From: Schmidtea nova
Lineage: Eukaryota
Direction of reading: 5' to 3'
NCBI GenBank assembly: GCA_044892505.1
Contig: CM097883.1
Location: 93,868,001-93,932,000, forward strand
Length of the DNA stretch: 64,000 nt
The stretch's first letter is position 1, and every line of letters starts with the position of its first letter. A program made the translations under genes and the position numbers. The notes beneath the pieces are model-generated. The model had not been told where the DNA came from, made no database searches, and was given only the letters and a program-made list of their open reading frames with translations. Positions 30,514 through 51,671 of the stretch are shown here, in pieces.

Positions 30514-31006
30514 CAGATAGAATCATAATATGATGTCAGATTTTGGAGTTAATTAAATCTTTGCTCGTTTTTTTTTGTGTTGTTGATTCCTAGGTATTTC
30601 TTTCGATTACATAATTCATATAATTAAATTTAAATTACACGTCACACAAACGAAAGGAGTAGCGATAAAGGATTTAAATATTATCAAATTTGTAGTTTCG
30701 TTTTGCTTGTTTTTTTTTTGTTTTTATGGTAAATACATAGCCTCACACGCACGAAATAGAACAATAATTGCGTAAGTCCTTCTACGGCCGCGTGAACCCG
30801 TAAACATAAAGGGGGAGTAGTCCTAGCAATAGTGCTCACCTGCCCCTCATTGTTTAACCACCCTGCGCATCACCAACTTGGTTATCAAGGGAAATAATCA
30901 AGGGCGCTCGAGTGTAGCTTACGATTATTTATGCATGATCATGGATGGGAGATCCCTGGCAATCATTAGAATGTTTACTACACCGTCCATGAACCCAGCA
31001 TAAATT

Positions 31007-31024
31007 TGGGGGCTCAGCCGGGAT
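31007..31024 (+). other. Primer-binding site, tRNA-Pro type
   Basis: TGGGGGCTCAGCCGGGAT, 16/18 identical to the canonical MLV tRNA-Pro PBS TGGGGGCTCGTCCGGGAT; 6 nt after the LTR end. Confidence 0.85.
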
Positions 31025-31339: not shown

Positions 31340-31843
31340 ATGATAAAAACAACAAAGTTAAAACGATTATTTATTCAGCAAATGGAGGAAAAACTGAAAG
31401 AAATCGAAGAATTTCTCAACACAGAAAACGAAACATTAGCAACAATTGGCAAGAAAATAAACCGATTTAGAGAAATTGAATTTCAAGAACCCACAACACA
31501 GACCGAGGAAACAGATGAATTAATAAAGATAACAGAAAGAACAAGTAAAATCGACATAAAAACCCGCTACAAATGGTACCGAGCACGACTAGAGAATGCG
31601 GAGCTAAACATTAGATGCAGACAAATAGAACAACAATTAACCCCAACATACAAGCGAGGGAGGGCGCAAGGGGTAGAAGCAGCGAAAAAATACCGACAGT
31701 GCTATATATGTGAAAACAACGAGATACAAATTATGTTTTTACCTTGCGGACATTTCCGTTTTTGTAAGATCTGTGCCAACAAGCGTGACCGGTGTCCGAT
31801 GTGCAACTTTACTGTGAATGAAAAAATTATAGTTTATTTGTAA
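31340..31843 (+). CDS. Coiled-coil plus C-terminal IAP/MDM2-type C3HC4 RING protein (putative E3 ligase)
   Basis: CYICENNEIQIMFLPCGHFRFCKICANKRDRCPMCNFTVNEKIIVYL at the extreme C-terminus; no BIR repeat seen. Confidence 0.85.
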   Translation: MIKTTKLKRLFIQQMEEKLKEIEEFLNTENETLATIGKKINRFREIEFQEPTTQTEETDELIKITERTSKIDIKTRYKWYRARLENAELNIRCRQIEQQLTPTYKRGRAQGVEAAKKYRQCYICENNEIQIMFLPCGHFRFCKICANKRDRCPMCNFTVNEKIIVYL

Positions 31844-31957: not shown

Positions 31958-32567
31958 AGTGAATTATAGAGATATCCGGATAAATAGTAACAGAGGGAAT
32001 ATATACCCATAGTATAATCGTCGACGAGATTTAGAGTAGTGCGCACCAGTAGTTAAGAGAATGCGAGTAAAGCTGATTATGCAACCTTAAGTAAAGCATG
32101 CAAGGAGAATAGTAGAGATTTGAGCTGACCGGAGCAACCGGCAGAATGAGTAAAACGATTGCTAGCAGGGAATAATGAATAAAGATGATAAAATAATGAT
32201 AAACGAGTCAGAAAGACTCAGGGAATTAGAGCGCTCGAGCGACCAATAAATTGGGAAACTGTGGGAAAAGTAATTGATTTGATAAAACATAGATAATTAT
32301 TACGACATAAATAGATAATTGTGACCAGTCTATAGATAATTTAAATAGACTAAAAATAAAGGGGAATCTGGGAATGGGAAATAATGAAAACCCAGTAATA
32401 AGTAATCCCGAAAGAAAGGGAATAAAAGCGCGACGATAACAATAATGTATCGTTGAGGACCTTTGTATTTTAGATATACAAATCAATCAAATCAATCAAT
32501 CAAGCAAGAAGAATCAGAACACGATAAGCGATAGGACAAGAAAATTGAGTATACAAAAGTAATCCCC

Positions 32568-35500
32568 TTGAGAAAAGGAGCAAAGATTGTCGTAGTAAAG
32601 CCAACGGAAAAGAAAGTCGGCAGCAATATTAACAAAAAAGACAAAACTAGTACTACAACAAAAACAGTAAAAAAGCAGAAAGCCGGCAAAGATAACAACA
32701 AGAACCCACAAGGGAGTAAAGCGAGAAAAATAATAAGAGATAAATCGATTATCGAAAACGATAAATTGTCAGTAGTAAGCAACAGCTCAAGTAACAAAGA
32801 AAACCAAGCAGAACCCAAGGAGAACCAAACAAGTGAAATTGAAATCGACGAAACTAACAGCGATAATATCAAAGAAATAGAACCCGAGATAGAACAAGAA
32901 GGAGAAATCGACGAAACTAACAACGATAATATCGAAGAAGTAGAAAACGAGGTAGAACCAGAGGCAGAAATCAACGAGAGTGATAACGAAAGTATAATAT
33001 CGGATAACGAAATAATAAGAGAAACTGAAAGCGATTCAAGCTCGAGTGAAACAGAAGACGAACATAACAACGAACTAGAAACAAGAGGAAACGAAAGTAA
33101 AATAACTCAAGACAGCGGAATTGAAATGGGTGAACCAAGAGAAGAAATAAAGGATAAATTTTCAGGAGAACCGTTTAACGGAGATGCGAGTAAATTAGAA
33201 ACTTTTCTAAAGGAATTTGGCATATTTGTGGAAGTATGCAAGTGGAAAGCGGAAACAACAGTAAGCAGAATTCAGTTATATTTAAAAGATAGTGCATTGG
33301 ATTTATATTTGGAAGCGAAAAATAGTACCAATCCACCTGCAAATTGGACAGCGATAAAGGATTTTTTCCAACAAACATTTGGAATAAATAAAGTGCTAAG
33401 CGAGGCATTCATAGAATTTTCAATGAGGAAACAAAAGATGAATGAATCTAATGCGGTATACGCGAGTGAACTGAAAAAATTAGCAAAATCGGTATTCAAG
33501 GATGGAGGTCCAATAAACGAGGAGTTAATGGCAGCTATCTTCATAGGAGGACTAAGAAGACCCGACATAAGAGCGCAAGTGGGATGCCAAGGATGCAAGA
33601 CCATTGATCAAGCGTTAGAAACAGCTAACAGATTCGAATTGCATATGATAGGAAGTGAGGGCAGAATTTATTTAGCCATGGACACAGCACAAACCGAACC
33701 AGAGGTAAATCTCAACAATCACATTCCAAATTCGCAACAATTAAACCGACCACCCCCTCAACGAAGGAATGAAGGAAATAAAGTGCAGAACTTTGGAAAC
33801 CAAAACAATTACAACCCTCAAGGACAAACAAGACAATGTAAAACATGTGGAAAATTGGGACACTGGCAACAAGAATGCTATCAAAATTTGAATTGCGGAA
33901 AATGTGGAGTTAAAGGACACTCGGAGAGTAGATGTTCTACGATAATCTGTTTTAATTGTGGACGACCTGGTCACTACTCAAGAAATTGCGGACAAAAAAG
34001 TAATCAGCGAGGAAACTGGCAGAGTAATGGGAACCGACAAAACTACGGAAATCAAACAAATACCGTGAACCGACAAGATTATGGAAACCAACAAGTCAAT
34101 AATAACAATAGTCAGAACAAAACTACCACCAAAGAAATACATTTGATGCAAGAAGTTCAAAGATTGACGGAACTTATAAACAATACGACGAGAGGAAATC
34201 CGCAAACCAATCAACAGCAAATTAGCATGATGAGAAAAATAGAAAGCGAAAACGAACGATTGAATCGAGAAAGTCAAGCACGACACGCTCAGGAATGGGC
34301 AAGAATACAAAGAGAGGATGAACAAAAACAGCAAGAAAGAGAGCGACAACCTCTAAGAATTAATATGCTAAGAGCAACAAACCAAACAGACACTCGCGAG
34401 AAAGAAACCACACTGGAAATGAATTCGATAGACCCGAATCCAGCCGACAACGAAAGTCGAAAAGAGACAGTACAAAAAGATGAAGAAGTAGAAAAAGAAA
34501 TAAAAAAGGAAGGGGAAACTGAGATAAACCAGGAAGAGAGAAGGGAGATTTGGAAAAGAGGAATGATGGTAATCATGCCCAACAAATCCGTGTTTAGATT
34601 CCAGTATAACGTAAAAGAAGAAGTGGGAATATTATTCAACAAAGTAAACCAGATGGTTCCAGGAGTAACGAAACTGCCCAGAGAAGCGTTTCTACAAATA
34701 GAAGGTGCGCCAAAAGTAAGGTTGGAATTAACGGATATATGGGAAAACTTGGGAGTAGTAGAAACAAAAAGAAACGTGATGATTATTAAAGAAATAGAAC
34801 CAGAAGAAATTCCACCACCAATACGTCACGAAACCCGAATCAGGCGAATATTTGAAGGGAAAATGATAAGAAGACGTTTAAAAGAGATAGACGAGTTGGG
34901 AAAGAAAATGAAAAAAGTCGAAGTAATAGAGGACAAAAATGAACAAACACCAGAAATTAGCAAAAACAAAACAAAACCAACGGAGAATATACAAGGGGAA
35001 ACGAACCAAACAGCACATATTAATATGTTAAGAAATACCACCAGAGAGTTCTCCGATGAAGAAGAAGATAGTGATATCAGTAGCCTAGCAGGAGACATAT
35101 TAAATGAATCCGAAGACGAAAATAAAGAGAGAGAAGTAATAAAGACCTCAGAACCTATACAGATAAAAGTAGATGAAATCCAGAAATTACTAGATAACTC
35201 GCTAGAAGTAATATATAACGAAGAGTTCATGGACAAGAAACAATACCGGAAATTCATGAAAGCATTATTACAAATGAACTACAAAGAATGGTTACAAGAC
35301 CGGGAAGTAGACATGTTAAACCGATACGTAGGGAAATTAATAGAGGAACCACTCCTCAATTACACCATCTCAATAATAATAAATACATCAACATCAAGAA
35401 TCTGGATCAAAACTCCATTCACAGACGATATCTACAGATGGGTAGAGGACAGGCTAGGGAGCTCATATAAAAACAAATTCATTTTCTCGCAGAATAGACT

Positions 35501-38500
35501 CGTAAAGAAAAGAACACACCTAGTAGAAACCGGTATATGGCCAGGAGAAATAACCCTGTTATCAATATGTGATGAAAAGGAAGAAGAGAACCTACAAGAA
35601 GTTGCAAAGGAAGCAAACACGTGTTTCGAAAGGAGAATAAAACCTCGGTTAGAATACGAGAAAGAACGAGTCTTACGAAAGAATCTAAATTCCCTGATAG
35701 AACAAATCATACCACAAGTCAAAAAACATAGAAAAGAGTTAATGAGAAGCGAATACGAGAAATTGAAACGATGTATTGAGTGCATACGTGACACAAGTCA
35801 CACGAGATGGTCACAGATCTCACACGACAAATTAATCGCAAAAATGGGAAAAACAATGTTTAGACAAGGGAAAATAACGGATCTAAAAATTTCAGTAGAA
35901 TTGCCTAATGAAGACACCAAAGAAATTGAAGTGGTAGCGGATTGCACCATTAAAGAATTAATAAATGTCATTAACGAGACACTAGTGCAAAGAGAACCAG
36001 AAGACGAATGGGAAGACGACATAATCATACAATACAACGAACATGTATTATGGGATCACGATGAGAGACGACTATATAAAATCGGTATATGGGATAATCA
36101 CCAAACCATCCACGTTATCAGAATGGACGATACACCCAGAGAAACTGCTAAAGATGAGAAAAGAGAACGGGAACGACGGAAAGAAGTTGTGCGCAAATTA
36201 CAACAAATAGTAGAAATTTATCGAAATTGGCGAATTTGGCCAGAGTGGGAAAATGTATTAGAAGAACTCAATCTCAACAGACGAATACGAACACCCGTAG
36301 AAAAACAATGGAACGAGAAAGGAAAATGTTGGGAACCAAAAGAAGGGGAATATGAAGAAGAATATGAAAGAGGAATGGAAGATGACTGCGAACCAGAAAT
36401 GAGAAGGGTTTGCATGGTGACAAGGAAAGCTACGCCAATAGACCTAGATGGACCAGAAACAGCGGCTATATGGTTAGAAAAGGAAAAGCAAAAAACGGAA
36501 GAATTTGTCGAAATATTAAAAACTAATGCGCACGGTAAGAGAAAAGTAATAAAAGGTCTCGCAGATTTTTTCGTGGTTAATGGAGAAGATATAACATGCT
36601 TGCGTAAAGTGGCAAAAGCAATCGCAGAATATAAAAGAGTCAACGAATGGTGTCCGGAACAACTAGACCACGTAATTAGGAAATGGAGGAATCAAGAATT
36701 CTCGCAAGAAATTCCACAAAAAGTACATTTAAGAATAATATACCCAAACAAGGATAAGGAAGAATTTTGGGTAGGAATAGCAGAAAAAATTCGAGATATT
36801 AAAAAGAAATTGAGATACGAACCACCATTCCATTTACAACACCAAGGACGAACATTAGATAACAGTTTGGAAATTGGAATAACGCCAGCACAACTAGATC
36901 TCATGAATACCTTAACAGTGGAAGCAATAGCGGGTCAACCATTGAAACGTAAAGAAGAAAACCATAAACCACACGGAAGTATAAGTACGCCGAGCCCGAT
37001 GAAATCAGTATTAACGCCAGGAACAAGTTCAAGACGATCTGAGACAACACCCAGAGGGAATAGAGAAAGGACTCCACCACAACCATATGACGTGGACGAA
37101 ATATTAACAGACAGCGACGACATGATAGAAGAGCTAACCGAATTAACAAAGGAAAAAGACGGCAACATTTTCGAAAGGATACAAGAACTACCTACGACAA
37201 TACAAGTAACTAACACCGGAGAAACAGAAGTCGAACAAGAGATAATAATAGAAGAAGTAAACGATTTGACAGAAGATGAAATAAGAGGAGTGAATGTCGA
37301 AAATGTACAATTAACCCAGGAAATGGAAAGATGGTTAGAAGAAAGAGCTAATGAACCAAGAGATGTCACAGAAGAAACCGGACGAGCAACAAGGTTTGTG
37401 GAAACAGGTACAGGAATGGATAGACGACCTCGAGGTAGACCCAAGACAGATCCAGCAAATATAGTCATCAGAAATAAGGATGAAAAGAGACAAGATCAAT
37501 GGGAATTATGCTTAAGGAAACTAAATAAAATTGCGGAGATAAAAGAAAAAGAAACAACACCAATATGTCAAGGGGAGGAATGGATATCGAAAACAATAAT
37601 GGAAATATTGGCAATAATTGATCCAGAATTGAGAAAATACTGGCGGATAACTGAGATAAGCGAAAAGGCAAAGTCATTACACAGCGCAATTGCACCCATC
37701 TTACCAGAATTCATAAAAGAAAAGACGAAATCAAATCACTTAGACTGGCAAGGAACCACTATGTTAATAAAGAAATTGACAGAAGGAGCGGAAACGGATA
37801 ACAAATATGTAATAGCCATTGCATATACGATCTACAATCTGTTGACACTGAGTAGAGGTCGACCAAAACCCACTGCATTAGAGAGACATATAAAAAATAC
37901 CGCAAAGATTATAGCTAGAGAAATAGAACCTTACGTCATTAACAAAGGAGGATGGGAAACATTTATAAAAACTAACCAGAAGAAAACACAAGCCAAGAAT
38001 ATGAAAAAGAAATTCGAAAAAATATTGGAAGAGTTAGAAAAGGAACAAACAGGAACAGGAAACGCAAAGTCATCAATGAATCTGAGTTCTATAATAATGA
38101 TGATGTTGATATGGATGATTAGCACCGATAGCGCAACAGCATTCGAAGTGTTTGATTGCGACCAAATGAAGTTAGGAGAAAAGTATTCATTGAGAGGTAC
38201 GGAGCAATGCAAAGATGCAACTCCAGTAGAGTTGCAAAAGATTAAAAAGGAACAATGGTACCACGTGTATCAAGAAGCAGAACTCATAAAGACAATGGTG
38301 AATGAATGTAAGGTGCAGAAAACGAGATTCGCATTCTACTGCGGGAGAGGACATTATTCAGCAATTGTCATGCCAGGAACGGAAAGAGAACCAATCGTGT
38401 TACAAGGAGAAGACTGCGAAGCACTGTTTAAACATGGAGAAGTAACAACAAGAGACAAAATCAAGATAAGAGGAAAGCCAGGAATGATGCTGCAACAAAC

Positions 38501-39005
38501 CTACTATGTAGCAGGACGGATTACGGGAGGAGAAGGATATTGTCAAGGAGAAACCTACCCGATGTTCGGAACACTCGCAACCAACTTAGTGGTGATGGAT
38601 ACGTATATAGTCGAACTAAAAAGCTATGAAGCATTCTTCGAACCAACAACGGGAGAAATGAAAACGTTATCCATGTGTAAAATCGACAGGAGCATGTGTC
38701 AAACGGGAATGTCAACATTAGTATACAAACCAAAGGTGAACGAATGTCAATTACAACTGCTACAAGGAGCACAGTTCGACGAAATTCAAGGAAAAACGTT
38801 CCAGGAAGAAGACGATGACGACAAAGCTAGAGCAAAGCATCTCAAGGAAGCTTTGGAGAATAAAAGACAACTGAAACCAGATCAGCGAGAAAAAAGGATA
38901 GAGATGAGAGCCACACCAACAGTGTTGATAACCACAAATCAGGATGTGGGAATGAGATTCATAAAAGGGAAAGCAACCCTTAAGTGTAGTACAACGGTAT
39001 ACTAA
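32568..39005 (+). CDS. gag: Gag - accessory domains - N-terminal part of envelope glycoprotein polyprotein (first in-frame ATG at 33126)
   Basis: Gag capsid-like EPFNGDASKLETFLKEF...; three CX2CX4HX4C knuckles (33837-33989); ubiquitin-like segments; PRGRPK AT-hook; Bcl-2-like helical domain ending NKGGWETF; internal signal peptide (38076-38141) followed by the FEVFDC glycoprotein start. Confidence 0.9.
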   Translation: MRKGAKIVVVKPTEKKVGSNINKKDKTSTTTKTVKKQKAGKDNNKNPQGSKARKIIRDKSIIENDKLSVVSNSSSNKENQAEPKENQTSEIEIDETNSDNIKEIEPEIEQEGEIDETNNDNIEEVENEVEPEAEINESDNESIISDNEIIRETESDSSSSETEDEHNNELETRGNESKITQDSGIEMGEPREEIKDKFSGEPFNGDASKLETFLKEFGIFVEVCKWKAETTVSRIQLYLKDSALDLYLEAKNSTNPPANWTAIKDFFQQTFGINKVLSEAFIEFSMRKQKMNESNAVYASELKKLAKSVFKDGGPINEELMAAIFIGGLRRPDIRAQVGCQGCKTIDQALETANRFELHMIGSEGRIYLAMDTAQTEPEVNLNNHIPNSQQLNRPPPQRRNEGNKVQNFGNQNNYNPQGQTRQCKTCGKLGHWQQECYQNLNCGKCGVKGHSESRCSTIICFNCGRPGHYSRNCGQKSNQRGNWQSNGNRQNYGNQTNTVNRQDYGNQQVNNNNSQNKTTTKEIHLMQEVQRLTELINNTTRGNPQTNQQQISMMRKIESENERLNRESQARHAQEWARIQREDEQKQQERERQPLRINMLRATNQTDTREKETTLEMNSIDPNPADNESRKETVQKDEEVEKEIKKEGETEINQEERREIWKRGMMVIMPNKSVFRFQYNVKEEVGILFNKVNQMVPGVTKLPREAFLQIEGAPKVRLELTDIWENLGVVETKRNVMIIKEIEPEEIPPPIRHETRIRRIFEGKMIRRRLKEIDELGKKMKKVEVIEDKNEQTPEISKNKTKPTENIQGETNQTAHINMLRNTTREFSDEEEDSDISSLAGDILNESEDENKEREVIKTSEPIQIKVDEIQKLLDNSLEVIYNEEFMDKKQYRKFMKALLQMNYKEWLQDREVDMLNRYVGKLIEEPLLNYTISIIINTSTSRIWIKTPFTDDIYRWVEDRLGSSYKNKFIFSQNRLVKKRTHLVETGIWPGEITLLSICDEKEEENLQEVAKEANTCFERRIKPRLEYEKERVLRKNLNSLIEQIIPQVKKHRKELMRSEYEKLKRCIECIRDTSHTRWSQISHDKLIAKMGKTMFRQGKITDLKISVELPNEDTKEIEVVADCTIKELINVINETLVQREPEDEWEDDIIIQYNEHVLWDHDERRLYKIGIWDNHQTIHVIRMDDTPRETAKDEKRERERRKEVVRKLQQIVEIYRNWRIWPEWENVLEELNLNRRIRTPVEKQWNEKGKCWEPKEGEYEEEYERGMEDDCEPEMRRVCMVTRKATPIDLDGPETAAIWLEKEKQKTEEFVEILKTNAHGKRKVIKGLADFFVVNGEDITCLRKVAKAIAEYKRVNEWCPEQLDHVIRKWRNQEFSQEIPQKVHLRIIYPNKDKEEFWVGIAEKIRDIKKKLRYEPPFHLQHQGRTLDNSLEIGITPAQLDLMNTLTVEAIAGQPLKRKEENHKPHGSISTPSPMKSVLTPGTSSRRSETTPRGNRERTPPQPYDVDEILTDSDDMIEELTELTKEKDGNIFERIQELPTTIQVTNTGETEVEQEIIIEEVNDLTEDEIRGVNVENVQLTQEMERWLEERANEPRDVTEETGRATRFVETGTGMDRRPRGRPKTDPANIVIRNKDEKRQDQWELCLRKLNKIAEIKEKETTPICQGEEWISKTIMEILAIIDPELRKYWRITEISEKAKSLHSAIAPILPEFIKEKTKSNHLDWQGTTMLIKKLTEGAETDNKYVIAIAYTIYNLLTLSRGRPKPTALERHIKNTAKIIAREIEPYVINKGGWETFIKTNQKKTQAKNMKKKFEKILEELEKEQTGTGNAKSSMNLSSIIMMMLIWMISTDSATAFEVFDCDQMKLGEKYSLRGTEQCKDATPVELQKIKKEQWYHVYQEAELIKTMVNECKVQKTRFAFYCGRGHYSAIVMPGTEREPIVLQGEDCEALFKHGEVTTRDKIKIRGKPGMMLQQTYYVAGRITGGEGYCQGETYPMFGTLATNLVVMDTYIVELKSYEAFFEPTTGEMKTLSMCKIDRSMCQTGMSTLVYKPKVNECQLQLLQGAQFDEIQGKTFQEEDDDDKARAKHLKEALENKRQLKPDQREKRIEMRATPTVLITTNQDVGMRFIKGKATLKCSTTVY

Positions 39006-40460
39006 ACGAATTATCCAGGAATATATGTGTCAAAACAAGAAGTGCCAAATGCGAAACCCAAAATCGACACAATGGATATCAAACTATACCTGTATGTGAA
39101 TAATAAAATGGATTTCCTATTCCATAGAGGACAAGCCTCATTACAAAAAGTGTACTACGATCTGATAAACAATGATTGTATACTGAATCGAGAAATATTA
39201 AAGACAAAGTTGGCCGTAGCGATTACGAATCCAGATAGCGCGATGCCATTATTACCACTGAGAGAAGGACATTTCGGAAGAGTGGTTGGAGAAGCCATGT
39301 ATGTATACATTTGTGAAAAGACACACGCGCCGCTAGCAGCAACAACGCAATTGAAACCTGGAACCTGTACAAATGAGTTAGAAATCGATTATAAAGGAAA
39401 AGTACGATACGTTCAACCGGTGACGAGAATCATCAATCCACCAGGGTTTGAACCAAATCCATTCAACTGTAGTAATGCGTACGGACCGCTTTATCAGAAA
39501 CCAGATGGTAAATGGGTTATGTTCCCAGGAAGATCCGAAGTGATAGCACCAAGAGAATTCGAGCTAATGCAGTTGTCAAAGGATAGGCAATTCAGCGACG
39601 TAGATGTCTCAAACAACGGAATATATAGTCCAAAGGATTTAGAAGCAGCAAGGCAGAATATATTATTCCCTGCGAGAAGAGAAGCATTACTGTCGAATAT
39701 CGTAACGATAACGGGAGGAACGGATTATCGAGAAGGACCGAATTATGAACTATTGTTGTCACCAGCACATTTCAAGAAAGCCACAGAAAATATGATGAAA
39801 GCAATGTGGGGAAGATTTCTGATATTCGGACAAATGATGGCCGGAATACTGGGGGTCATATTAATAATCCAAATCGTCAGAGTGATAATAACGCAAATGC
39901 TCGCGTGTTTTGACATCTACAAGAGAGAAAAGAAAGTGAATTGGAAAATGGTAGTAGGGTTTTTACCATTCCTCGCGAAGACGATGGTGTTGCATGGACA
40001 CTCAAAGGACATACATCGAATAAAGAGATTGTTGAAGATACTCGCAAAAATGAAGGGAACAGATGAAGAAGTAGGACGAAAATTTAAAAAGATAATGAAT
40101 GACGAACAAGCAAGACAACAGCTCAAGAGAGAAAGAAAAGGTTTATGGGAGAGGATGAAAGGATATAAAACCCAAAATGATTCGAGTGACGACGATGATG
40201 ACGATGACGACTATAAGGGAGGACAAGTCTATAAGAACCAAGCACCCCAATACATTGAAAAGAATCCAGCCGACGCGTGGAAATGTTACGCACCTCCACC
40301 AACCATGTATCAAGAACCACTACAAGGAGGAAGAACGACAACAATGCAAATGATGCCAATGACAAATGTATACCCCATGATACCAGAAGATTATAAAATG
40401 AGAAGATGTAGAAGCGTAGATCCACAAGGAGATACACACACGATCGCAGTAATGTCATAA
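39006..40460 (+). CDS. env: C-terminal half of chuvirus-like (gB-type, class III) envelope glycoprotein, in frame after a single TAA
   Basis: LYVNNKMDFL...YYDLINNDCILNREIL, GRVVGEAMYVYIC, CTNELEI...VQPVTRII, TM FLIFGQMMAGILGVILII and a cytoplasmic tail; the frame is continuous from 39006. Confidence 0.85.
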   Translation, partial: TNYPGIYVSKQEVPNAKPKIDTMDIKLYLYVNNKMDFLFHRGQASLQKVYYDLINNDCILNREILKTKLAVAITNPDSAMPLLPLREGHFGRVVGEAMYVYICEKTHAPLAATTQLKPGTCTNELEIDYKGKVRYVQPVTRIINPPGFEPNPFNCSNAYGPLYQKPDGKWVMFPGRSEVIAPREFELMQLSKDRQFSDVDVSNNGIYSPKDLEAARQNILFPARREALLSNIVTITGGTDYREGPNYELLLSPAHFKKATENMMKAMWGRFLIFGQMMAGILGVILIIQIVRVIITQMLACFDIYKREKKVNWKMVVGFLPFLAKTMVLHGHSKDIHRIKRLLKILAKMKGTDEEVGRKFKKIMNDEQARQQLKRERKGLWERMKGYKTQNDSSDDDDDDDDYKGGQVYKNQAPQYIEKNPADAWKCYAPPPTMYQEPLQGGRTTTMQMMPMTNVYPMIPEDYKMRRCRSVDPQGDTHTIAVMS

Positions 40461-40517
40461 AACACAGGTCCAGTATTAACCACGACAATAGAGATTAACG
40501 GAAGAGAAATCGAAGCA

Positions 40518-43500
40518 ATGATCGACACTGGAGCAAATATTTCCGCCATCGATATCAAATGGATACCACAAGAGCAAAGACGGGAAATAGAAAGGACAAA
40601 CGTCCATGTAATTGCATGTAGCAAAGAAGTTGTAGAAGTAGCAGGAAGATGGTGGGTAAAAATACGCCATTTAAATACAGAAATCGATACGTACGTAGCA
40701 GTCATACCAGCATTAAGCGTACCTTGCATTATCGGAACAGATTTGATGCCAGCGTTATTTAAAGAAATCGTAATCGATCTCGGAACAATGAGATTAAAAG
40801 ATCGCACCGGACAAATATGCGCAATAGAAGCCAAAGTGACAAGCTCAAAGCAAATGATAATACCCGCAAGAAAGGAAAAAATATGTTACGTAAAAATAGA
40901 TCCGACAATCCAAGGCGATATGATTTTCGAACCAAGTAAGAGATTCGAGAAAAGAAAAGCGTTGCCAATGGCAAGAGGACTAGTCAACATAAACGATAAT
41001 GGGGAAATCCCAATAAACGTAGTAAATTTCGACGAGGAGGATAAAATAATCTACGAAAACGAAAGACTAGGTAAACTAACCCCAATGATGGATATCGAAA
41101 TACCAATAGAAGGGGCAGAGAAAGATAAAGAACCAACCTGGAATATTGATAGTGAATTATTAAATGAGGACCAAAAGAAGCAGCTAGAAAAACTTCTGAT
41201 AGAGTATAAGGACATATTTGCAGCATCCGATTTAGATCTAGGAACATGTGATGTCACACTACATACGATACCATTAACAGATGACACACCAATTGCATTA
41301 AGGCCGTACAAATTAGCAGAAGCACAGAAAGCAGTAGCAGAAGCAGAAGTGAAGAAAATGTTGGATGCGGAAGTAATCGAACCAAGTTGCTCACCCTGGC
41401 AATTTCCAGTGGTAATGGTAAAGAAGAAAGACGGAACACAGAGATTCTGCATAGATTATCGAAGGTTGAATACGGTAACAAAACGAGACACTTACCCATT
41501 ACCGGACATCAACGAAATGCTACTAACACTACAAGGAGCAGCATATTTTACGTCGTTAGATCTAAAAAGCGGATATTGGCAAATAAAAATGAAGGAAGAA
41601 GATAAAGAGAAAACTGCCTTTACCATCGGTAGAGACCTATATCAATTTCGAAAGATGCCATTTGGATTAACGAACGCACCAGCATCATTTCAGAGATGCA
41701 TGAATTTCGTCACCCATGGAATAAAGCAGTGTATGGTCTACATAGACGACTTATTAATTTATTCTAGCACGTTTGAACAACACATACAAGATATTCGAGA
41801 TGTATTCGTTAGACTTAGACAATGGAAGTTAAAACTCAAGCCATCCAAGTGTGATTGGGCGAAAGAAAAGGTTACATTTTTAGGACATATAGTGTCAGCA
41901 AAAGGAAAAGAACCGGATCCTAGAAATATCGACAAAGTAAAAGAATGCCCAGTACCAAAAACAATAACCCAAATACAAGAATTTCTCGGACTATGTGGAT
42001 ATTATAGAAAGTTTATAAAAGATTACGCCGGAATAGCAAAACCTATACAAGAGCTGGTAAAGAAAGATGTATCATTCATATGGGGAGACGAACAGCAAAC
42101 AGCTTTCGAGACATTAAGAGATAAACTGATAACCGCACCCATATTGGTACACCCAGACTTCAAGAAGCCATTCCTACTTGCAACGGATGCAAGCGGATAT
42201 GCAGCAGGAGCAGTATTAGGACAATACGATGATGAAGGAAAAGAACGGGTAATCGGATATTATAGCCGGACATTCAAAAAGCATGAGAAAAACTACTCAG
42301 TAACCGAGCGAGAAGCATTAGCGATTATATTAGCGATTAAACATTTTAAATATTTATTATGGGGACACATCATCTGCATAACAACAGATCACCAACCGCT
42401 TGTATGGTTAGGACAGCATAAGGAAACATCCAGTAGATTAATGCGATGGGCAATGCAGTTACAGGAGTACTCACCAGACATAAAATTTAAATCAGGAAGA
42501 GCGAATGCGAATGCAGACTGTATGTCAAGACTGACATTCCCGGAATTAACCGACCCGGATGTACAACGAATTTGCGTATTAATAGCAGAAGATTTGGATT
42601 TTAGTGAATTAAAGAAAGATCAGCAGGAAGACAAAGAATTAGGACAGATCATAGAATTCCTAACATCTCGAAACATGGAAGTATTCAAAGAGAACAAGGA
42701 ATTAAAGGAACATATAGGAAAATATCAACATCGCTACATAATAAATAAAGGATGGTTGTTAATACAAGACGGGGAAAAGAGATTGATGTGCTTACCGGAA
42801 AACAGAAGGAAAGAGATAATGATCCAATACCATGATGGGAAATTAGGAGGGCATATGTCCGAGAAAAAGACAATAAATCGTATGAGACAAAAATATTATT
42901 GGCGAACAATGGAAGAAGATATCAAAGGATGGATTAAAAATTGTCTAACTTGCGCAACCGGAAAGGATAGTGGGAAGAAATGGAAAAACCTACTACAACC
43001 AATGCCGATACCAGCAGAGCCAATGACAACTATAGCAATGGACGTAATAGGGCCATTACCAGAAAGTCTAAACGGAAATATTTATATATTGGTAATAACG
43101 GATTACCTGACAAAATTCCCGGAAGCATTTGCCATGCAAGATCAAAAAGCAAAAACCGTAGCAAAAATTTTGGTAGAAGAAATATGTTGCAGATACGGAA
43201 CTCCAAAACAAATACTCACAGACCAAGGAACTAACTTTATGAGTGAGTTATTAGACGAGGTGACAAACTATTTCAGAATAGCAAAATTGAGTACTTCACC
43301 ATATCACCCACACACGAATGGACAAACAGAGAGATTCAACGGCACATTGATTAGAATGTTATCCAACTATGTCAGCAGACACCAAACTGATTGGGACGAA
43401 TACATAAAATTATGTTTAATGGCATACCGAATGTCGATACATGCAGCAACAAAACTAAGCCCGTTTCAACTTATGTATGGAAGAGAATGCAACATGCCCA

Positions 43501-46478
43501 TAGATTTAGAGTATCAACCACCATTATCGCAATATATGGAAGACGACGACTACGTAACCAAATTCAAAGAAAGAATGCAGGAAATATGGAAAACGGCAGA
43601 ACTCAACATTAAATTTTATCAGGAAAGTTATAAGGATTTACACGACCAGAAGAAAAATGTTAAAGCAAACGACCTAAAACCAGGAGATTGGGTGATAATA
43701 GAAACTCCCGAAATAATACCAGGAACGGTTAAGAAACTCCAAAGACCTGGAAGAGGACCTTATGAAATTATATACAAAAAGGACAATAATGTCAAAGTTA
43801 AGCTAGTAAATCGACCGTTAATACGATCCATATATGTAAACACATGCAGATGTAAGAAAGTGCCTAAAACAATAACTACAACACCAGAAAATCGAATAAT
43901 AACCAGATCACAAACAGCCAGGATAAATATGCTCAGAGCAAACACAACCGAAGACGACAAAGCAGAAACAAGGCATAAGGAAATCAGAAATAAAGAAATC
44001 GTATTGAAAGCAAGAGAGGTAATGGGAAGATGGCATGCCAGAGACGAAGCAAACATATTAAAAGATATACGATGGATAATTAGCGACTACGCACAAGGAC
44101 TACCAACGAAACCAATTATTTCTGAGTTGTTAGGAAAAATCCCTGAAATACTTTTATTAGAGGATGTAGGGGGACAACCCGCCTTACACAATGCGGTAAA
44201 GTGTGGAAACATAGAAAGAGCAACGGAATTCCTAAAAATTGCAAAAGAAACCAATCAACACCTAGGTTTCGGGAATCGCGAACAAGAAACCCCACTAATG
44301 ATAGCGGCAATTTACCAAGCAAACAAGGAAATGATAGACCTTTTGATAAAGGCCCGTTTCAACTGGACAGAACGAGATAGGGAAGATAAAACAGTCTTAA
44401 ATCACGTAATATGGAGTTCACACCAACTAATGCTGAAACATATAATCGCAAACGCCACATGGGAAATAGACGAATTAATAAAAGGAGACATTATCAAAGA
44501 AGCAATCAAAATTGGTAAGTGCAACACGATCCGTAAGTTAATCAAATGGAAACGACCAGAAGATGATACATGGGTTTTAGACATAAACGAAGTATACAGC
44601 GAAGGACAAAACGCACTGTTAAGATACCTTGTGAAATTTACTTGCGATCAAAAGACATTACTAACCTTATTAGACAGAGGAAACATAAACATCACAAAGA
44701 ATGAAGAAGAACACAAATTCGATAAAGAAAAAGGGGCCTTATTCAACAAGATTAGGAAATGGTGTGCGAAACCACTTGATAAACTAATAACATACAAAGA
44801 CATAAACAATTTTAACGAGAAATACCAGACGATAGTAAATGAGTATGATGAACTAGTAAAAATCCTAAACCACCCCGAAAAATGCAAACAGGTTTTGGAG
44901 AAAAAAGAAAGAGAAAGTAACAAGAAACTCACACCACTCTTCAAAGCAGAAGCACCATACCAAGCTAGACTAGATGCGATACAAGAAAAAGCAAAAGAAT
45001 TGTTACCGGAATTCGAGAATAGTAAACATGCACTGGAAATACTCGGCGCATTAGTTGAAAAAGTACACGCATACGCAAAAGGAACATACAATAGTAACGA
45101 CATAACGACTATAAAAAAGGAGATGCCAGTAACATTTTTACTACCAAAGGACGGAATAATGCCCATACATAGAGCTTTACGAAATGGCAAAGATAGAAAA
45201 GTAATGGAAATCGCAAGAGTAATGTTAAATTGCGGAAGCAACATGAATATGATAGACGAGAAAGGAGATACACTTATGGTATTTGCAGCAAGGGCTAAAA
45301 CGAAAACAAAGGTGTTGGAAGAACTATACAAAGCAGGTGCAGGACTTACAGGAAAGACAGATAAAGATAATTCAATTTTGGATGTAGCATTACTAACACA
45401 TAATTGGGAAATGGTCAACTTCATTAAAACAATCGCAAATCAGGAAGAAATAGATTACCTAACTGATACGGTTAAGAAACCCAGTGTACTAACAATGATG
45501 CATAATGTCGAACTAACAGAAGCAATACTTACGTGGATAAATCCGAATACTAACGAACCAGCATTCAGGATTAATGAGTTTACAGAACATAACCAAAACT
45601 GGTGTATAAGAAGTGCCTTAATAACGTATAAATGGCCAGAGATATTGAAGATGTTTATGGAAAGAAAGGATATAAGAATCACAAACAATCCGAAAGAAGA
45701 GAAATACACAGGCAAATGGAAAGAATTAATGAAGACATACATCAACAACTGGATCAAGGCCAAAAAGGAAATTGTGGAATATAAATCCACCAACAAAGTA
45801 ATACCGGAGCACTTAGAAACACAAGAATTTGAGGCAAGTAATCTAACGACATTAGCATATGCAAAATTGATAGAAGAAATCAATGTCGAGGACGACATTT
45901 TCAACGAGCCAGGGGGAGATGACAATACAGATAGTGACGACGGTAACAACTCAGAAAATTCAAACGATCACGAACCACCCGATAAAGAGGAAAACGAGAA
46001 AAAAGACAAGAAACGAGTCAAAGAAGAAAAGAAAAATGAAGACGAAAAACAAAGAAATGAAGAGGGAGAACAAAGAGACCAAGGAATTAAAAATGACACC
46101 CAAAGAACAGGTTATAAATCAACCATAAAACCATTCTTCAAACCAGAATTACTATTATTAACAGTGATTTTAACGTTAATTAACCCAAGTCAAGGAATGA
46201 CATGTGAAGAAAGGGCAATAATACAAATAAAAAACGCAAAAGGAATCGAACGAGTATGTTGGTCGAAAAAGGACAAAATCACGGAACAAAATAGCCCGAT
46301 GGATTGCAGAATCTCAAAACACGAGCAAGAGATCATAGAGATCAATGACTTAGATCTAAATACCTGGTACAAAATATGCACCGTTAGAAAACAAAAGCAT
46401 CCAAGATCACACAACACAATCGCATGTGCAAAATACCAAACACCTAAAGCAGCCATGACAATACAACAGTCACCCTAA
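40518..46478 (+). CDS. pol: Pol polyprotein (PR-RT-RNase H-IN) extended by ankyrin repeats and a signal peptide/FN3-like module; frame open from 40461
   Basis: IDTGANISAI protease; CIDYRRLN, MPFGLTNAP and YIDD (41739-41750) RT; TDASG...TDHQPL RNase H; HHCC, TDQGTNF, TERFN and GPY integrase; GQPALHNAV, ETPLMIAA, GIMPIHRAL and GDTLMVFAA ankyrin motifs. Confidence 0.95.
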   Translation: MIDTGANISAIDIKWIPQEQRREIERTNVHVIACSKEVVEVAGRWWVKIRHLNTEIDTYVAVIPALSVPCIIGTDLMPALFKEIVIDLGTMRLKDRTGQICAIEAKVTSSKQMIIPARKEKICYVKIDPTIQGDMIFEPSKRFEKRKALPMARGLVNINDNGEIPINVVNFDEEDKIIYENERLGKLTPMMDIEIPIEGAEKDKEPTWNIDSELLNEDQKKQLEKLLIEYKDIFAASDLDLGTCDVTLHTIPLTDDTPIALRPYKLAEAQKAVAEAEVKKMLDAEVIEPSCSPWQFPVVMVKKKDGTQRFCIDYRRLNTVTKRDTYPLPDINEMLLTLQGAAYFTSLDLKSGYWQIKMKEEDKEKTAFTIGRDLYQFRKMPFGLTNAPASFQRCMNFVTHGIKQCMVYIDDLLIYSSTFEQHIQDIRDVFVRLRQWKLKLKPSKCDWAKEKVTFLGHIVSAKGKEPDPRNIDKVKECPVPKTITQIQEFLGLCGYYRKFIKDYAGIAKPIQELVKKDVSFIWGDEQQTAFETLRDKLITAPILVHPDFKKPFLLATDASGYAAGAVLGQYDDEGKERVIGYYSRTFKKHEKNYSVTEREALAIILAIKHFKYLLWGHIICITTDHQPLVWLGQHKETSSRLMRWAMQLQEYSPDIKFKSGRANANADCMSRLTFPELTDPDVQRICVLIAEDLDFSELKKDQQEDKELGQIIEFLTSRNMEVFKENKELKEHIGKYQHRYIINKGWLLIQDGEKRLMCLPENRRKEIMIQYHDGKLGGHMSEKKTINRMRQKYYWRTMEEDIKGWIKNCLTCATGKDSGKKWKNLLQPMPIPAEPMTTIAMDVIGPLPESLNGNIYILVITDYLTKFPEAFAMQDQKAKTVAKILVEEICCRYGTPKQILTDQGTNFMSELLDEVTNYFRIAKLSTSPYHPHTNGQTERFNGTLIRMLSNYVSRHQTDWDEYIKLCLMAYRMSIHAATKLSPFQLMYGRECNMPIDLEYQPPLSQYMEDDDYVTKFKERMQEIWKTAELNIKFYQESYKDLHDQKKNVKANDLKPGDWVIIETPEIIPGTVKKLQRPGRGPYEIIYKKDNNVKVKLVNRPLIRSIYVNTCRCKKVPKTITTTPENRIITRSQTARINMLRANTTEDDKAETRHKEIRNKEIVLKAREVMGRWHARDEANILKDIRWIISDYAQGLPTKPIISELLGKIPEILLLEDVGGQPALHNAVKCGNIERATEFLKIAKETNQHLGFGNREQETPLMIAAIYQANKEMIDLLIKARFNWTERDREDKTVLNHVIWSSHQLMLKHIIANATWEIDELIKGDIIKEAIKIGKCNTIRKLIKWKRPEDDTWVLDINEVYSEGQNALLRYLVKFTCDQKTLLTLLDRGNINITKNEEEHKFDKEKGALFNKIRKWCAKPLDKLITYKDINNFNEKYQTIVNEYDELVKILNHPEKCKQVLEKKERESNKKLTPLFKAEAPYQARLDAIQEKAKELLPEFENSKHALEILGALVEKVHAYAKGTYNSNDITTIKKEMPVTFLLPKDGIMPIHRALRNGKDRKVMEIARVMLNCGSNMNMIDEKGDTLMVFAARAKTKTKVLEELYKAGAGLTGKTDKDNSILDVALLTHNWEMVNFIKTIANQEEIDYLTDTVKKPSVLTMMHNVELTEAILTWINPNTNEPAFRINEFTEHNQNWCIRSALITYKWPEILKMFMERKDIRITNNPKEEKYTGKWKELMKTYINNWIKAKKEIVEYKSTNKVIPEHLETQEFEASNLTTLAYAKLIEEINVEDDIFNEPGGDDNTDSDDGNNSENSNDHEPPDKEENEKKDKKRVKEEKKNEDEKQRNEEGEQRDQGIKNDTQRTGYKSTIKPFFKPELLLLTVILTLINPSQGMTCEERAIIQIKNAKGIERVCWSKKDKITEQNSPMDCRISKHEQEIIEINDLDLNTWYKICTVRKQKHPRSHNTIACAKYQTPKAAMTIQQSP

Positions 46479-46628
46479 GGAGATTACATCATCGGAAAAT
46501 GTGGAAGAACAGAGACACAGGAAACAGAAAACAAAAAATCCCAGGCAGCAGATAAGCAAACAACACCAACCCTACGAATTACAATAGAGAGGCCCGAAAC
46601 AAGAGTTGCCACAAACGAAACCGAAAGA

Positions 46629-49607
46629 GTGTCTTACCAAATGGAAGTGTTATGTTTAGCACTCATACTAATAATAATAAAACGACTAGAGGAAGGGACG
46701 GAAATCGAAACTATGACAATAACAGAAGTTGAAGATACACAGAATACTAACATAAAATGTTGGGCGAGGAATAACGAGGAAATCGGCGTAAATGAAATAA
46801 GGAAAAGTCGAAAACCAACAACAAGTAAAGTAATTAAAGTATCCGAAGTAAGAGCAGACAAAATGTACAAACTATGCCTACTAGAAAAAGAGAGAAACAA
46901 GAAAGGTACCACAAAAATTAAAACATTCCAAACTGGAGAAGTAATAAAGTTCAGAAGGAGAACGAGGAGGAGAAATAAACAAATCAAGCAGAAAGTAAAC
47001 ATAACATTAGAAATAAAAGAGATAGAACCAAACGTGAAAGGAGTATGCTGGAGGAAGTACGAAAAGAAAACAAATAAAAGAATGACACCACAATGCCGAA
47101 CAAGCACAGGAGCAACGACGATTCAAATAAAAGGTTTAGAAAGTAAACAAACCTACGAAATATGTTTGGTAAAGAAAAATGATCAGATAACGATAAACGA
47201 CCTAGAATGCGGAATACATACAACTTCATCCGGAACAAGAACCAAAACGTTAACACGGAAAAATAAAAGGAAACAACGAAACAAAGGAAAACCGAAGTAC
47301 ACCACTACCTTTAAAAACAATAAACAACCAATAAGCCAGGAAGTTACGACAAAACCCGAGAGAAAGACATCAGCAACTCTAACATTATGGAAAATAGAGA
47401 ATAAAACATTGGAAATATGTTGGATAATAGTCCAGAAACATATAAGAAGACAATCAAGAGAGTGCAGAAAAACAAATAAAGAAATCAGGATCGAAAAACT
47501 ACAATTTAATAGCGAGTATGAAGTATGTACAATAGAAAAAATGGACGCACTAGGAAACCAACAAGAAAGATGCGAAACCTACTATACACCAGCAAACGCG
47601 ACATCAAAAGGAGTAGCAAGGAAACTCGAATTCAAGGAACTAAGCCAAACGAATGAACAAATGGACGCAGAAAAAATAATAACCGATCCTCAAGCAAAAT
47701 GGACACCTGAAGAAGTTATCAAAGAAGTCAAAAGAAAGCAAGAGGAACGGGAACAATTAAGGAGAAAACTAAAAGGACAATATGGAATAATGTTCAACCA
47801 AAGCGAATCTATACCAACAGACGAGAATAAGGAAATTAAAGAACTAATTGGCTTAGGAATTTTAACAGCGACCATACCAGTAATAATCGCGTTATCAGCT
47901 ATATGGATACGCAAGATAAATCCCAGAAAATCAACAACCAAATGGCCAAATATAGACAGTACAAGCCACGGAGTTGAAATACTAGAAGAAAAAGCAAGAG
48001 AAGAACCAAAACCGACCAGGAATAAGAAAGAAGCAAAAATCGCAAAACTAGGAATGAACAACAAAGACAAGGAAATAAAAGAGATTAAAGGAGAAGAGAA
48101 AAAATATGAAAGGCGAACCAGAAGCCTACCGCAGAGTTCAAAATGGTTGGGTCTAACAATAATATTGACATTAATCAATAGGGAAGAAGCAACAAACCTA
48201 CAAGCAGGGATAAAAATAGTAAATGTCCAGGAGGTCGAGAAAATATGCTGGAATAGAGAGGATGAACCAATTGGGAAAGATAACCCACTAAAATGCATAA
48301 TCAGAAAATCCGACCAGGATATAGTACGAATAGAAGGGATGGATAGAGGAATCATGCATCGAATATGCATAATAGGAAAGGAAAGGAAGTCGGGGCTACC
48401 TAAGACAGTCGTATGCCAAAAATACGAAACGCCTAGACTTGAATGGTATAGAGTAAAACCAACAAAGAAAGAAATCAAAAACACAATAGATCAACCAGCA
48501 ACTCAGATAAGAAACACAACGGATAAACCAGGAGAAGGGGAGAGAAGCACCAATAACACGAGAGAAAGAATATCACCCCAACAAGAGTGCGTATGCATAG
48601 CATTAATAATAGCAATGTCCAAACGTTTTGACAGAGGAATAATAATAGAACAAATGGCCATAACAATAAGAAAAACAAGCAGCAACAAACTATGCTGGGG
48701 AACATACAACGAACCAAGGAAGGAATACCAAGTTCAGACAAGCGACGAATCACGAACAAACAAGGAAATCGAAATACAAGAAATACAAATGAACGAAGAA
48801 GGAAGTATATGTATATGGGAGAAAGGAACCCAAGAGGATCAACCCGGAATAGAGCATTGCAAGACATTCCAAAAAGGAGAGACACTGAACTTCGACGAAG
48901 AAGGGTTAACCAAGACAGAAAGAACTCTGACATTAACAGGACTCGATCAGACAGTTAAAGGAATATGTTGGACAAAGTACAACCCAGAAGTGGAAGAAGA
49001 CAACCTAACCCACTGTAAAGAAATAAAGAATAAAGAAAAAGTCGAATTAAAGAAAATCGAAGTAAATAGGACATACGCGATATGTACCTTCACCAGAAAA
49101 GGTTCAGAAAAACCAGAATGCGGATTATATCAGATCTCAGAGAAACTACAACAACAGATCGAACCAGGAAACGTGGAAAACCGAACAAAAGAAAATAACG
49201 TCAAACAACTACTAAACCGCCATTGGTCTACACAAGAAGTAATGAACCAAGTCAAGAGTCAAGTGCAGAAGGAGAAGAGGCCAGAGGCTCAAACGCAAAA
49301 TGAGATAAAAGTAAATCGGAATAAAAACAAAGAAACAAACATGGGAAAAGCAGTAATAGGATTGATCAGTATGGGAATATTAATAGCGTATGGAATACTG
49401 ACTACCAGCATGATAGTATACTGGAAATACAGGAAGAGAAACAAAGCGACAGCCATACAATGGCCAGATATCAAAATTATGAAACAAGGAATAGAAATAC
49501 CAGAAGAAATACAGAAAGAATTTCAAAGAAGAACGAAAGGTAAAGAATTCTGGAAACAAATAGAAGATGAAGAAAGATACGACAGAAGGACAATAATGAA
49601 TGTATAG
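46629..49607 (+). CDS. Multi-pass membrane protein with repeated Cys-containing FN3-like modules (first ATG 46641; in frame with pol)
   Basis: Six modules with CW and I..L.....Y.IC-like motifs, signal/TM segments, and internal duplication of a cassette. Confidence 0.8.
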   Translation: MSYQMEVLCLALILIIIKRLEEGTEIETMTITEVEDTQNTNIKCWARNNEEIGVNEIRKSRKPTTSKVIKVSEVRADKMYKLCLLEKERNKKGTTKIKTFQTGEVIKFRRRTRRRNKQIKQKVNITLEIKEIEPNVKGVCWRKYEKKTNKRMTPQCRTSTGATTIQIKGLESKQTYEICLVKKNDQITINDLECGIHTTSSGTRTKTLTRKNKRKQRNKGKPKYTTTFKNNKQPISQEVTTKPERKTSATLTLWKIENKTLEICWIIVQKHIRRQSRECRKTNKEIRIEKLQFNSEYEVCTIEKMDALGNQQERCETYYTPANATSKGVARKLEFKELSQTNEQMDAEKIITDPQAKWTPEEVIKEVKRKQEEREQLRRKLKGQYGIMFNQSESIPTDENKEIKELIGLGILTATIPVIIALSAIWIRKINPRKSTTKWPNIDSTSHGVEILEEKAREEPKPTRNKKEAKIAKLGMNNKDKEIKEIKGEEKKYERRTRSLPQSSKWLGLTIILTLINREEATNLQAGIKIVNVQEVEKICWNREDEPIGKDNPLKCIIRKSDQDIVRIEGMDRGIMHRICIIGKERKSGLPKTVVCQKYETPRLEWYRVKPTKKEIKNTIDQPATQIRNTTDKPGEGERSTNNTRERISPQQECVCIALIIAMSKRFDRGIIIEQMAITIRKTSSNKLCWGTYNEPRKEYQVQTSDESRTNKEIEIQEIQMNEEGSICIWEKGTQEDQPGIEHCKTFQKGETLNFDEEGLTKTERTLTLTGLDQTVKGICWTKYNPEVEEDNLTHCKEIKNKEKVELKKIEVNRTYAICTFTRKGSEKPECGLYQISEKLQQQIEPGNVENRTKENNVKQLLNRHWSTQEVMNQVKSQVQKEKRPEAQTQNEIKVNRNKNKETNMGKAVIGLISMGILIAYGILTTSMIVYWKYRKRNKATAIQWPDIKIMKQGIEIPEEIQKEFQRRTKGKEFWKQIEDEERYDRRTIMNV

Positions 49608-49732
49608 GGGCGGATTATGACTGTAAATAATAGTGTAAATAACAAAGCATTACCGTAATAGTATGGGTATCGATATTATAAAAATTGTAAAAAGATAGAA
49701 AAGCAAAGTAAATGATGTATATAATTTAGAAA

Positions 49733-50089
49733 ATGACCGAACAGGACGAAACAACTGAAATAACTATGGCTATGAGATGGAAAGCGCAATGCGATTTATT
49801 AGTACGAACAGTCAACTCATTACAGAACCAATTAGCAGAAAAACAAATGTTACTATCAGAAAGCTATAACAATTGTTTCGAACAATTACACAGAATAGAG
49901 GAACAACAAAGAGCGATAACTGAACTCACCAGAGAAAATCAAACGATAAGCAACACCAATCAAAGACAAGCAATAGAAATAAACCATTTAACACGAGGAG
50001 AAAGAGAAGGATCCGAAGAAGGATGGATGAGTTGGGTAATAAATAGATTAAACAACGAAGCGGAACCAGATTCAACGAATGAGCCATAG
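49733..50089 (+). CDS. Small coiled-coil protein, unknown function
   Basis: ATG ORF preceded by TAGAAA; heptad pattern. Confidence 0.65.
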   Translation: MTEQDETTEITMAMRWKAQCDLLVRTVNSLQNQLAEKQMLLSESYNNCFEQLHRIEEQQRAITELTRENQTISNTNQRQAIEINHLTRGEREGSEEGWMSWVINRLNNEAEPDSTNEP

Positions 50090-50181
50090 ATAAATAAAGC
50101 GGAAAACTGTAAATATGTAAAAATAAAAACAAGAAAAACCAAAAATAAATGACAGGTCGAATGTATATATTATTGTAGAAA

Positions 50182-51558: not shown

Positions 51559-51671
51559 TGAAGGAAGTAACCATGTAAATAAACTGTATAGAACAATATG
51601 AATTAACAAATAATCAAAAACAATAAAAATAAAAAAATGATTAAATATTCTTTTTATCTGTAATTATAGAA

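Follow-up and report, generated by a model that had tools for sequence, protein, structure and literature searches.

Can a reading frame of 17 kb be interrupted three times and still encode a single product, and if so, what are the interruptions? The question is posed by a 64,000-nucleotide stretch of the Schmidtea nova genome (NCBI GenBank assembly GCA_044892505.1, contig CM097883.1, positions 93,868,001 to 93,932,000 of the forward strand; hereafter the window, numbered from its first letter), in which one plus-strand frame of a long terminal repeat (LTR) retroelement is broken by only three TAA codons. A sequence-only reading of the window had proposed that the frame specifies one polyprotein and that the stops are either leaky regulators or nonsense mutations. 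We hold with high confidence that the three TAA codons are nonsense lesions of one copy of a Burro-like Ty3/gypsy element, in which Gag, cargo, Env, Pol, ankyrin repeats and a membrane tail are encoded in a single frame, with a likely AUU start upstream and a product predicted to be cut after translation.

A stop-to-stop scan reproduced both the coordinates of the frame and its length: 32535–49607 (+) comprises 5,691 codons ending in a terminal TAG at 49605, and the open reading frames (ORFs) 32535–39005, 39006–40460, 40461–46478 and 46479–49607 adjoin one another in the same frame, with TAA at 39003, 40458 and 46476 as the only internal stops. Over the same span with 600 nt on either side, the remaining two plus-strand frames contain 632 and 356 stops. 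The spacers were confirmed to hold no stop (the stretches up to the next ATG, at 39072, 40518 and 46641, are open), the window copy has no frameshift across the 17 kb, and the first ATG of the frame lies at 33126, 197 codons in. Three breaks would all fall in frame by chance once in 27 times; homology across each break is stronger evidence for a single frame than these odds. The stops, and the parts of the frame in which they lie, are the following.

39003–39005, plus strand: private stop 1, inside the Env ectodomain
40458–40460, plus strand: private stop 2, at the Env/protease border
46476–46478, plus strand: private stop 3, inside tail module 1
33126–34100, plus strand: Gag, with a capsid region that opens at the first ATG and is followed by three CCHC knuckles read from the translation (Retrotrans_gag, PF03732, E = 2e-4, below its cutoff; PF00098)
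34101–38075, plus strand: in-frame cargo, possibly with ubiquitin-like and Bcl-2-like parts (weak matches only: PF18036, ubiquitin-like, E = 0.087; Bcl-xL, E = 1.6)
38076–40457, plus strand: Env, with a signal-like segment, mononegavirus-like fusion ectodomain, anchor (39816–39908) and tail (PF24664, hydropathy)
40461–43880, plus strand: Pol, with protease, a 115-aa spacer, reverse transcriptase (RT), RNase H and integrase (Pfam; the protease–RT spacer has no Pfam match)
44100–45860, plus strand: ankyrin-repeat region (PF12796, E = 4e-12, three stretches)
46137–48113, plus strand: tail module 1, with hydrophobic segments, four FN3/Ig-like repeats and an anchor (47841–47912), from homology to module 2 before as well as after stop 3
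48114–49607, plus strand: tail module 2, with three FN3/Ig-like repeats, an anchor (49341–49421) and the terminal stop (repeat alignment, model)

The stops were compared with other copies of the element in the assembly (sisters). For stops 1 and 2, the query 38800–40700 yielded 862 candidates, of which the best 40 were listed and the best 30 compared, one being the window itself; for stop 3, the query 45900–47100 yielded 390 candidates, of which the best 40 were listed and 30 compared, partly the same copies. All three sites are open in 29/29 sisters, and the 21-mers centred on each stop have one exact match apiece in the 1.25-Gb assembly, namely the window. The sisters have sense codons at every site, the outcome that the sequence-only reading had itself named as refuting programmed readthrough. 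As the stops are restricted to this copy and the sisters read through them, they are most likely damage. Comparison of the whole frame used 28 of the 29 stop-1/2 sisters (one tandem neighbour was left out); 24 of these are near-complete, with 99% or more of the frame covered from 33126 onwards, and the four partial copies stand outside the counts that follow unless all 28 are named. The near-complete sisters contain 31 stops, 0–4 each (three or more in 4/24), and four of the 24 have neither stop nor frameshift; the terminal stop is common to all 24. Across the 28 copies there are 42 stop positions, one of them common to two copies, and 28 of the 29 stop variants classified in the 24 sisters plus the window are singletons. 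The single ~5,000-aa Gag/Env/Pol ORF is therefore intact in the family, in those four copies, and broken in the window copy; a single polyprotein stands as the family product, at about 5,500–5,700 aa. The window copy has, in addition, a fourth private stop at 52566–52568, in an accessory ORF starting at 51672, which is found in 0/25 sisters.

Each break is bridged by homology. The Monjiviricetes-type fusion glycoprotein profile PF24664 matches on either side of stop 1 (E = 8e-19 and 3e-45), with profile positions 5–209 before it and 278–579 after it, bearing out the earlier suggestion that this stop is a lesion inside the glycoprotein; a search of PDB sequences with the Env piece gave no meaningful match. 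Stops 2 and 3 had been placed at plausible functional boundaries, which proved true only of stop 2: it lies at the Env/protease border, two codons past a conserved cleavage-like word. Stop 3 splits one module, as the halves before and after it align to residues 12–108 (E = 2e-20) and 127–342 (E = 1e-23) of the continuous module 2. In a relative (P0023, 32–40% identical), one chain made up of Env, protease, RT and RNase H continues past the positions of stops 1 and 2. The comparison also took in five diverged elements from other places in the assembly (capsid 64–90% identical, representing about three lineages): junction 1 is open in 5/5, junction 2 keeps the same frame in 5/5, one of them with a stop within the 402-nt span, and junction 3 is open in 3/3. 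Another relative (L161, 3791–6094) continues from protease into ankyrins in the same frame, without RT, RNase H and integrase.

Variants common to at least two copies among the 24 sisters and the window gave ratios of nonsynonymous to synonymous substitution (dN/dS) of 0.00–0.05 for Pol, 0.02–0.05 for Env, 0.05–0.16 for Gag and cargo together and 0.06–0.18 for the cargo region, 0.11 for the ankyrins and 0.17–0.31 for the tail. Purifying selection is shown to act throughout the frame, on Env and the tail as well, and on Env it is strong. Because its ectodomain is constrained, we infer that Env is probably used as a fusogen. In one diverged element (L146, 3998–5869), Env is 96–98% identical to that of the window, compared with 92% for RT, 81% for integrase and 64% for the capsid, which suggests a recent exchange of Env between lineages. 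The copies differ from each other by 2.5–6.4% (median 4.9%), and the LTR pairs within copies by 0–0.38%; many distinct lineages have therefore inserted recently. Copies with greater LTR divergence have more stops (rho = 0.50, p = 0.022, for the 21 copies in which an LTR pair could be measured).

The constrained frame begins before the first ATG, and two further features are needed to describe its 5′ end.

32544–33125, plus strand: N-terminal extension of Gag by 194 codons, probably initiated at AUU, with a basic part followed by an acidic one (from polymorphism ratios, indels and the kept ATT)
32461–32473, plus strand: putative, conserved splice-acceptor-like word ending TTTTAG (identical in 25/26 sisters, AG in 26/26)

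In the extension, the ratio of nonsynonymous to synonymous polymorphism (pN/pS) is 0.35 in frame, compared with 1.16 and 0.59 in the other frames. A net frameshift occurs there in one of 26 copies, compared with 15 of 26 over the preceding 634 nt, and eight of nine distinct indels keep the frame, against two of 23 upstream (p = 4e-5, on our own grouping of the indels). Coding constraint therefore extends to the codons that precede the capsid ATG. A 63-nt tandem repeat lies within the extension (32841–32966); many sisters lack one unit, always with the frame kept.

The extension has no ATG in frame in the window (one copy has one), and the candidate for its start is the near-cognate ATT at 32544, which is in frame, conserved and in strong context, with a purine at −3 and G at +4; the ATT is kept in 26/26 sisters and its +4 G in 22/26. 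In the window, in 24/26 sisters and in 5/5 diverged elements, the 800 nt that lead up to the capsid ATG contain a single AAA-ATT-GA, in frame and 117–194 codons upstream of that ATG; the word does not recur in frame among the other 5,493 codons. Between this word and the capsid ATG the window has no ATG in any frame, compared with 11–14 per 600 nt elsewhere; shuffles of the stretch have a mean of 4.87, and none of 500 was ATG-free. The stretch is likewise ATG-free in 5/5 diverged elements (where 41, 1, 0, 1 and 4 of 500 shuffles were ATG-free) and in 21/24 sisters. Searches with tblastn found no match between the window extension and those of two diverged elements, so that AAA-ATT-GA has persisted where the surrounding protein sequence has not; in one diverged element the extension contains a stop. 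Translation likely starts at AUU 32544 with leaky scanning to the capsid AUG. Two stretches at this end, 32290–32499, around the acceptor-like word, and 33015–33164, around the capsid ATG, are ~99% identical among copies, compared with 92–97% nearby; the folding z score is −2.0 for 32300–32500.

The following mechanism would account for these features. Scanning ribosomes would start in part at AUU 32544, giving a 5,687-aa product with an extended Gag, and in part at AUG 33126, giving one of 5,493 aa. Signal-like and anchor segments (hydropathy places hydrophobic segments at 38076, 39816, 46137, 46629, 47841 and 49341) would guide both Env and the FN3/Ig-like modules into the endoplasmic reticulum, and the element's protease would free Gag, cargo and the parts of Pol at a recurring word. 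This cleavage-like word occurs six times, compared with 0.63 in shuffles, an enrichment that is overstated as the pattern was widened after the sequence had been seen; the occurrences are kept in 26–28 of 27–28 copies. From the window copy only a protein truncated inside Env would be made, and the copy would not be able to copy itself. A −1 frameshift as the control of product ratios was rejected, since none of 11 in-frame slippery heptamers is both conserved and followed by structure (best z = −1.74), and no real 2A-like motif was found. For Burro-like elements as a group, we lean, if only slightly, towards a ~5,700-aa polyprotein begun at AUU, with leaky scanning over 350–580 AUG-free nucleotides giving two Gag isoforms and with a fusogen and FN3/Ig-like membrane proteins held under selection: an infectious invertebrate retrovirus that would be regulated at initiation, not at a stop or frameshift.

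Several findings weigh against this account. The window copy has nine private amino-acid changes in core domains, where 2.9 are predicted at its 0.03% LTR divergence, as well as four stops (for the excess of core changes P = 0.003, post hoc, in one of 25 copies); with damage in excess of LTR age, plain decay after insertion is not a full account of the stops. The lowest synonymous polymorphism (pS) of the frame surrounds stop 3 (0.033 and 0.056 around the stop, and 0.035–0.066 over 46335–46694, compared with a median of 0.144). An RNA element was considered there and rejected: the stretch has no fold and no overlapping open frame, and its total variation is undiminished. At the 5′ end, TTG 32568 is as invariant as the ATT (26/26 sisters), and the five diverged elements count as only about three lineages. 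Finally, the stops are those of the assembled sequence, and the AUU start and the cleavage are predictions from sequence.

The excess of stops and core changes over LTR age is the first argument for placing the lesions before the last integration, by way of a defective RNA with helper proteins, or for later equalization of the LTRs by gene conversion. It is joined by the intercept of 0.30 in the regression of stops on LTR divergence and by the Pol-less relative in the assembly, in which protease is joined to ankyrins. The assembly, however, contains neither a parent nor a sibling that shares these stops, and three stops are not rare family-wide (P = 0.14 at a mean of 1.29). We regard this history as a serious possibility, somewhat short of an even chance; it alters the timing of the stops, not their nature.

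It is rather unlikely, though well worth weighing, that the extension is translated not from AUU 32544 but by way of a spliced upstream exon, an AUG in a trans-spliced leader, or UUG 32568. In addition to the invariant TTG, an AUG in flatworm spliced leaders can open frames, according to the excerpted text of PMC9851317, and acceptor-like AG words precede the accessory ATGs of this element. Yet the strong acceptor-like word ending at 32473 is out of phase, so that a leader AUG spliced there would enter the wrong frame, and 1-nt indels are tolerated after it. Moreover, AAA-ATT-GA stays in frame even where the extension has no tblastn match, and scanning through the extension would agree with its loss of ATG in every frame.

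Errors of base calling or polishing, in a repeat of high copy number and with a true locus that is open, would explain why four stops beside near-identical LTRs exceed expectation, but we consider them very improbable: there is no frameshift in 17 kb, the 78 private substitutions have the spectrum of the pooled set, and the sisters have the same stop load. Among contigs of four public sequencing runs from one study, none identical to the window spanned stop 2, a result that speaks for neither side, as such contigs drop rare variants. That any of the TAA codons serves as a programmed leaky stop tuning the Gag:Env:Pol:tail ratio, the other role first suggested for them, has next to no probability, for although all three are in frame, stop 2 sits at the Env/protease border and synonymous divergence is low around stop 3, none of them occurs in any of the 29 sisters, their 21-mers are single in the assembly, diverged elements have open junctions, domains are interrupted by stops 1 and 3, and no RNA structure was found 3′ of stops 1, 2 or 3 (folding z = −1.23, −0.89 and −0.24 in a pseudoknot-free model).

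The frame ends in the tail, a tandem duplication of one membrane module. Its seven repeats of ~80 aa have a common Cys-Trp word and a later Cys; one of them was modeled as a six-strand beta domain (predicted local distance difference test score of 81), for which FN3 and Ig domains ranked first by fold, none at E ≤ 0.001. A profile of the repeat found 52 proteins at E ≤ 0.001, with fn3 in 8/10 of those scanned, and no match among PDB sequences. The repeats are likely, though on weak support, to be FN3/Ig-like. A single module is present in the four diverged elements whose sequence extends to the tail, and two in the window's subfamily. No homologue of module 2 was found among 3,975 candidates of 273–870 aa, and the Atlas returned nothing for it at 0.9 or more. 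A separate spliced start of the tail at ATG 46641 was rejected, as no AG precedes that ATG.

The frame lies within an LTR element of 28.7 kb (27947–56643) with LTRs of ~3.05 kb, which differ by one mismatch and two gaps and have the 4-nt sequence ATTT on both outer flanks. Its other features are as follows.

27947–31000, plus strand: 5′ LTR, TG...CA, 3,054 nt (alignment to the 3′ LTR; ATTT duplication)
31007–31024, plus strand: primer-binding-site-like 18-mer (position after the 5′ LTR), which may resemble a tRNA-Pro primer site
31382–31843, plus strand: accessory ORF with a C-terminal RING finger (PF13920, E = 1e-11; in 5/6 sister ORFs scanned)
49733–50089, plus strand: accessory ORF of no clear family (pN/pS 0.11; ATG in 25/25)
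50182–51558, plus strand: accessory TRAF-like ORF with RING, zf-TRAF and MATH (PF22486, E = 4e-21; pN/pS 0.12)
51672–52733, plus strand: accessory ORF broken by the private stop at 52566 (ending at 52731 in 25/25 sisters)
52813–53373, plus strand: accessory ORF with signal-like and membrane segments (hydropathy; pN/pS 0.26)
53592–56643, plus strand: 3′ LTR, 3,052 nt (LTR comparison)

An apparent absence of the RING ORF from half of the copies was discarded as an alignment artefact. Ahead of each downstream accessory ATG (49724–49735, 50173–50184, 51663–51674 and 52804–52815) stands an AG with two or three A after it, kept in nearly all sisters that cover the site, and the four look like a series of splice acceptors. 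Before three of the ATGs this acceptor-like AG is kept in 23–25 of 24–25 copies, which suggests that those three ORFs are expressed from spliced messages. Each LTR contains two ORFs of 175 and 207 codons (29238–29738 and 29905–30513, and again in 54855–56157) with no convincing Pfam match. Immediately before the 3′ LTR (53572–53591) there is no plain polypurine tract but a short GGGG-T-CCCC palindrome. Outside the element, open frames of 532 and 524 codons lie at 59535–61133 and 24548–26122 (minus strand).

The layout of the element is that of Burro/GYPSM1, giant gypsy-like LTR elements of planarians, with which it was compared by published description rather than by a Burro reference sequence. 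In the excerpts of that description used here (PMC6431247), Burro/GYPSM1 has one ORF of 4,873 or 5,140 aa (5,493–5,687 aa in the present frame), with Env in frame between gag and pol, and it matches the S. nova element in its multi-kb LTRs, its length near 30 kb and its one huge ORF, as well as in Gag with CCHC knuckles, cargo, an in-frame mononegavirus-like Env, protease, RT, RNase H and integrase, ankyrins, and MATH/TRAF cargo. A single polyprotein layout is thus already published (PMC6431247). For the BCL2-like, SUMO-like and dUTPase-like motifs of Burro/GYPSM1, the window offers the weak Bcl-xL and ubiquitin-like matches of its cargo and a protease–RT spacer without a Pfam match. Unlike Burro/GYPSM1 as described in those excerpts, TRAF is here a separate downstream ORF (50182–51558), and section 7 of that text makes no mention of an FN3/Ig-like membrane tail or of a start other than AUG. 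No BIR domain was matched in the 11 ORFs scanned, only RING, and the element is therefore filed as Burro-like, not as Burro1.

Partial accounts of other systems allow further comparison. Errantiviruses with a GAG-ENV-POL order and an HSV/gB-type Env are described from Nematoda, Bryozoa and Platyhelminthes (PMC13524379, in excerpt), and resemble the present element in their Ty3/gypsy Pol and in having Env before Pol. They differ from it in that all parts here are in one frame with much cargo; the excerpted survey deals with LTR pairs 5–14 kb apart and does not name Burro, whereas the LTRs here are 25.6 kb apart (PMC13524379). The planarian secretory cell nidovirus (PMC6211748, as excerpted) likewise carries ankyrin and fibronectin-type domains in one giant ORF, but it is an unrelated RNA virus and its fibronectin domains are FN2; a further difference is that the present element yielded no slippery site both conserved and followed by structure. 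For the start, excerpts of PMC3542737 offer two precedents: the glyco-Gag of murine leukemia virus, which begins at a CUG in strong context ahead of the Gag AUG, and ORF I of rice tungro bacilliform virus, where initiation at AUU is combined with a long stretch that lacks AUG and so permits leaky scanning. In contrast to glyco-Gag as described there, the extension here has no hydrophobic signal segment, being basic then acidic; unlike either case, the predicted extension would lengthen a Gag-Env-Pol polyprotein. The literature searched contained no non-AUG start for Burro or any planarian element, in a search that ran without the primary Burro paper and its supplements. Within that limit, the constrained 194-codon extension with its likely AUU start, the duplicated FN3/Ig-like tail and the constraint on Env are apparently new.

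With the stops being ordinary damage and the layout known, the flagged observation of a 17-kb frame with three stops is itself of little weight. If true, the AUU start adds about 120–190 residues to the Gag-Env-Pol of giant elements, annotations that begin at the first ATG are too short, and the start is a Ty3/gypsy counterpart of murine leukemia virus glyco-Gag. The FN3/Ig-like tail would add surface proteins to a cargo previously described as regulators of apoptosis and ubiquitin. Constraint on the Env ectodomain near that on Pol, together with many young and diverse copies, provides sequence support for the published hypothesis that Burro-like elements are proviruses.

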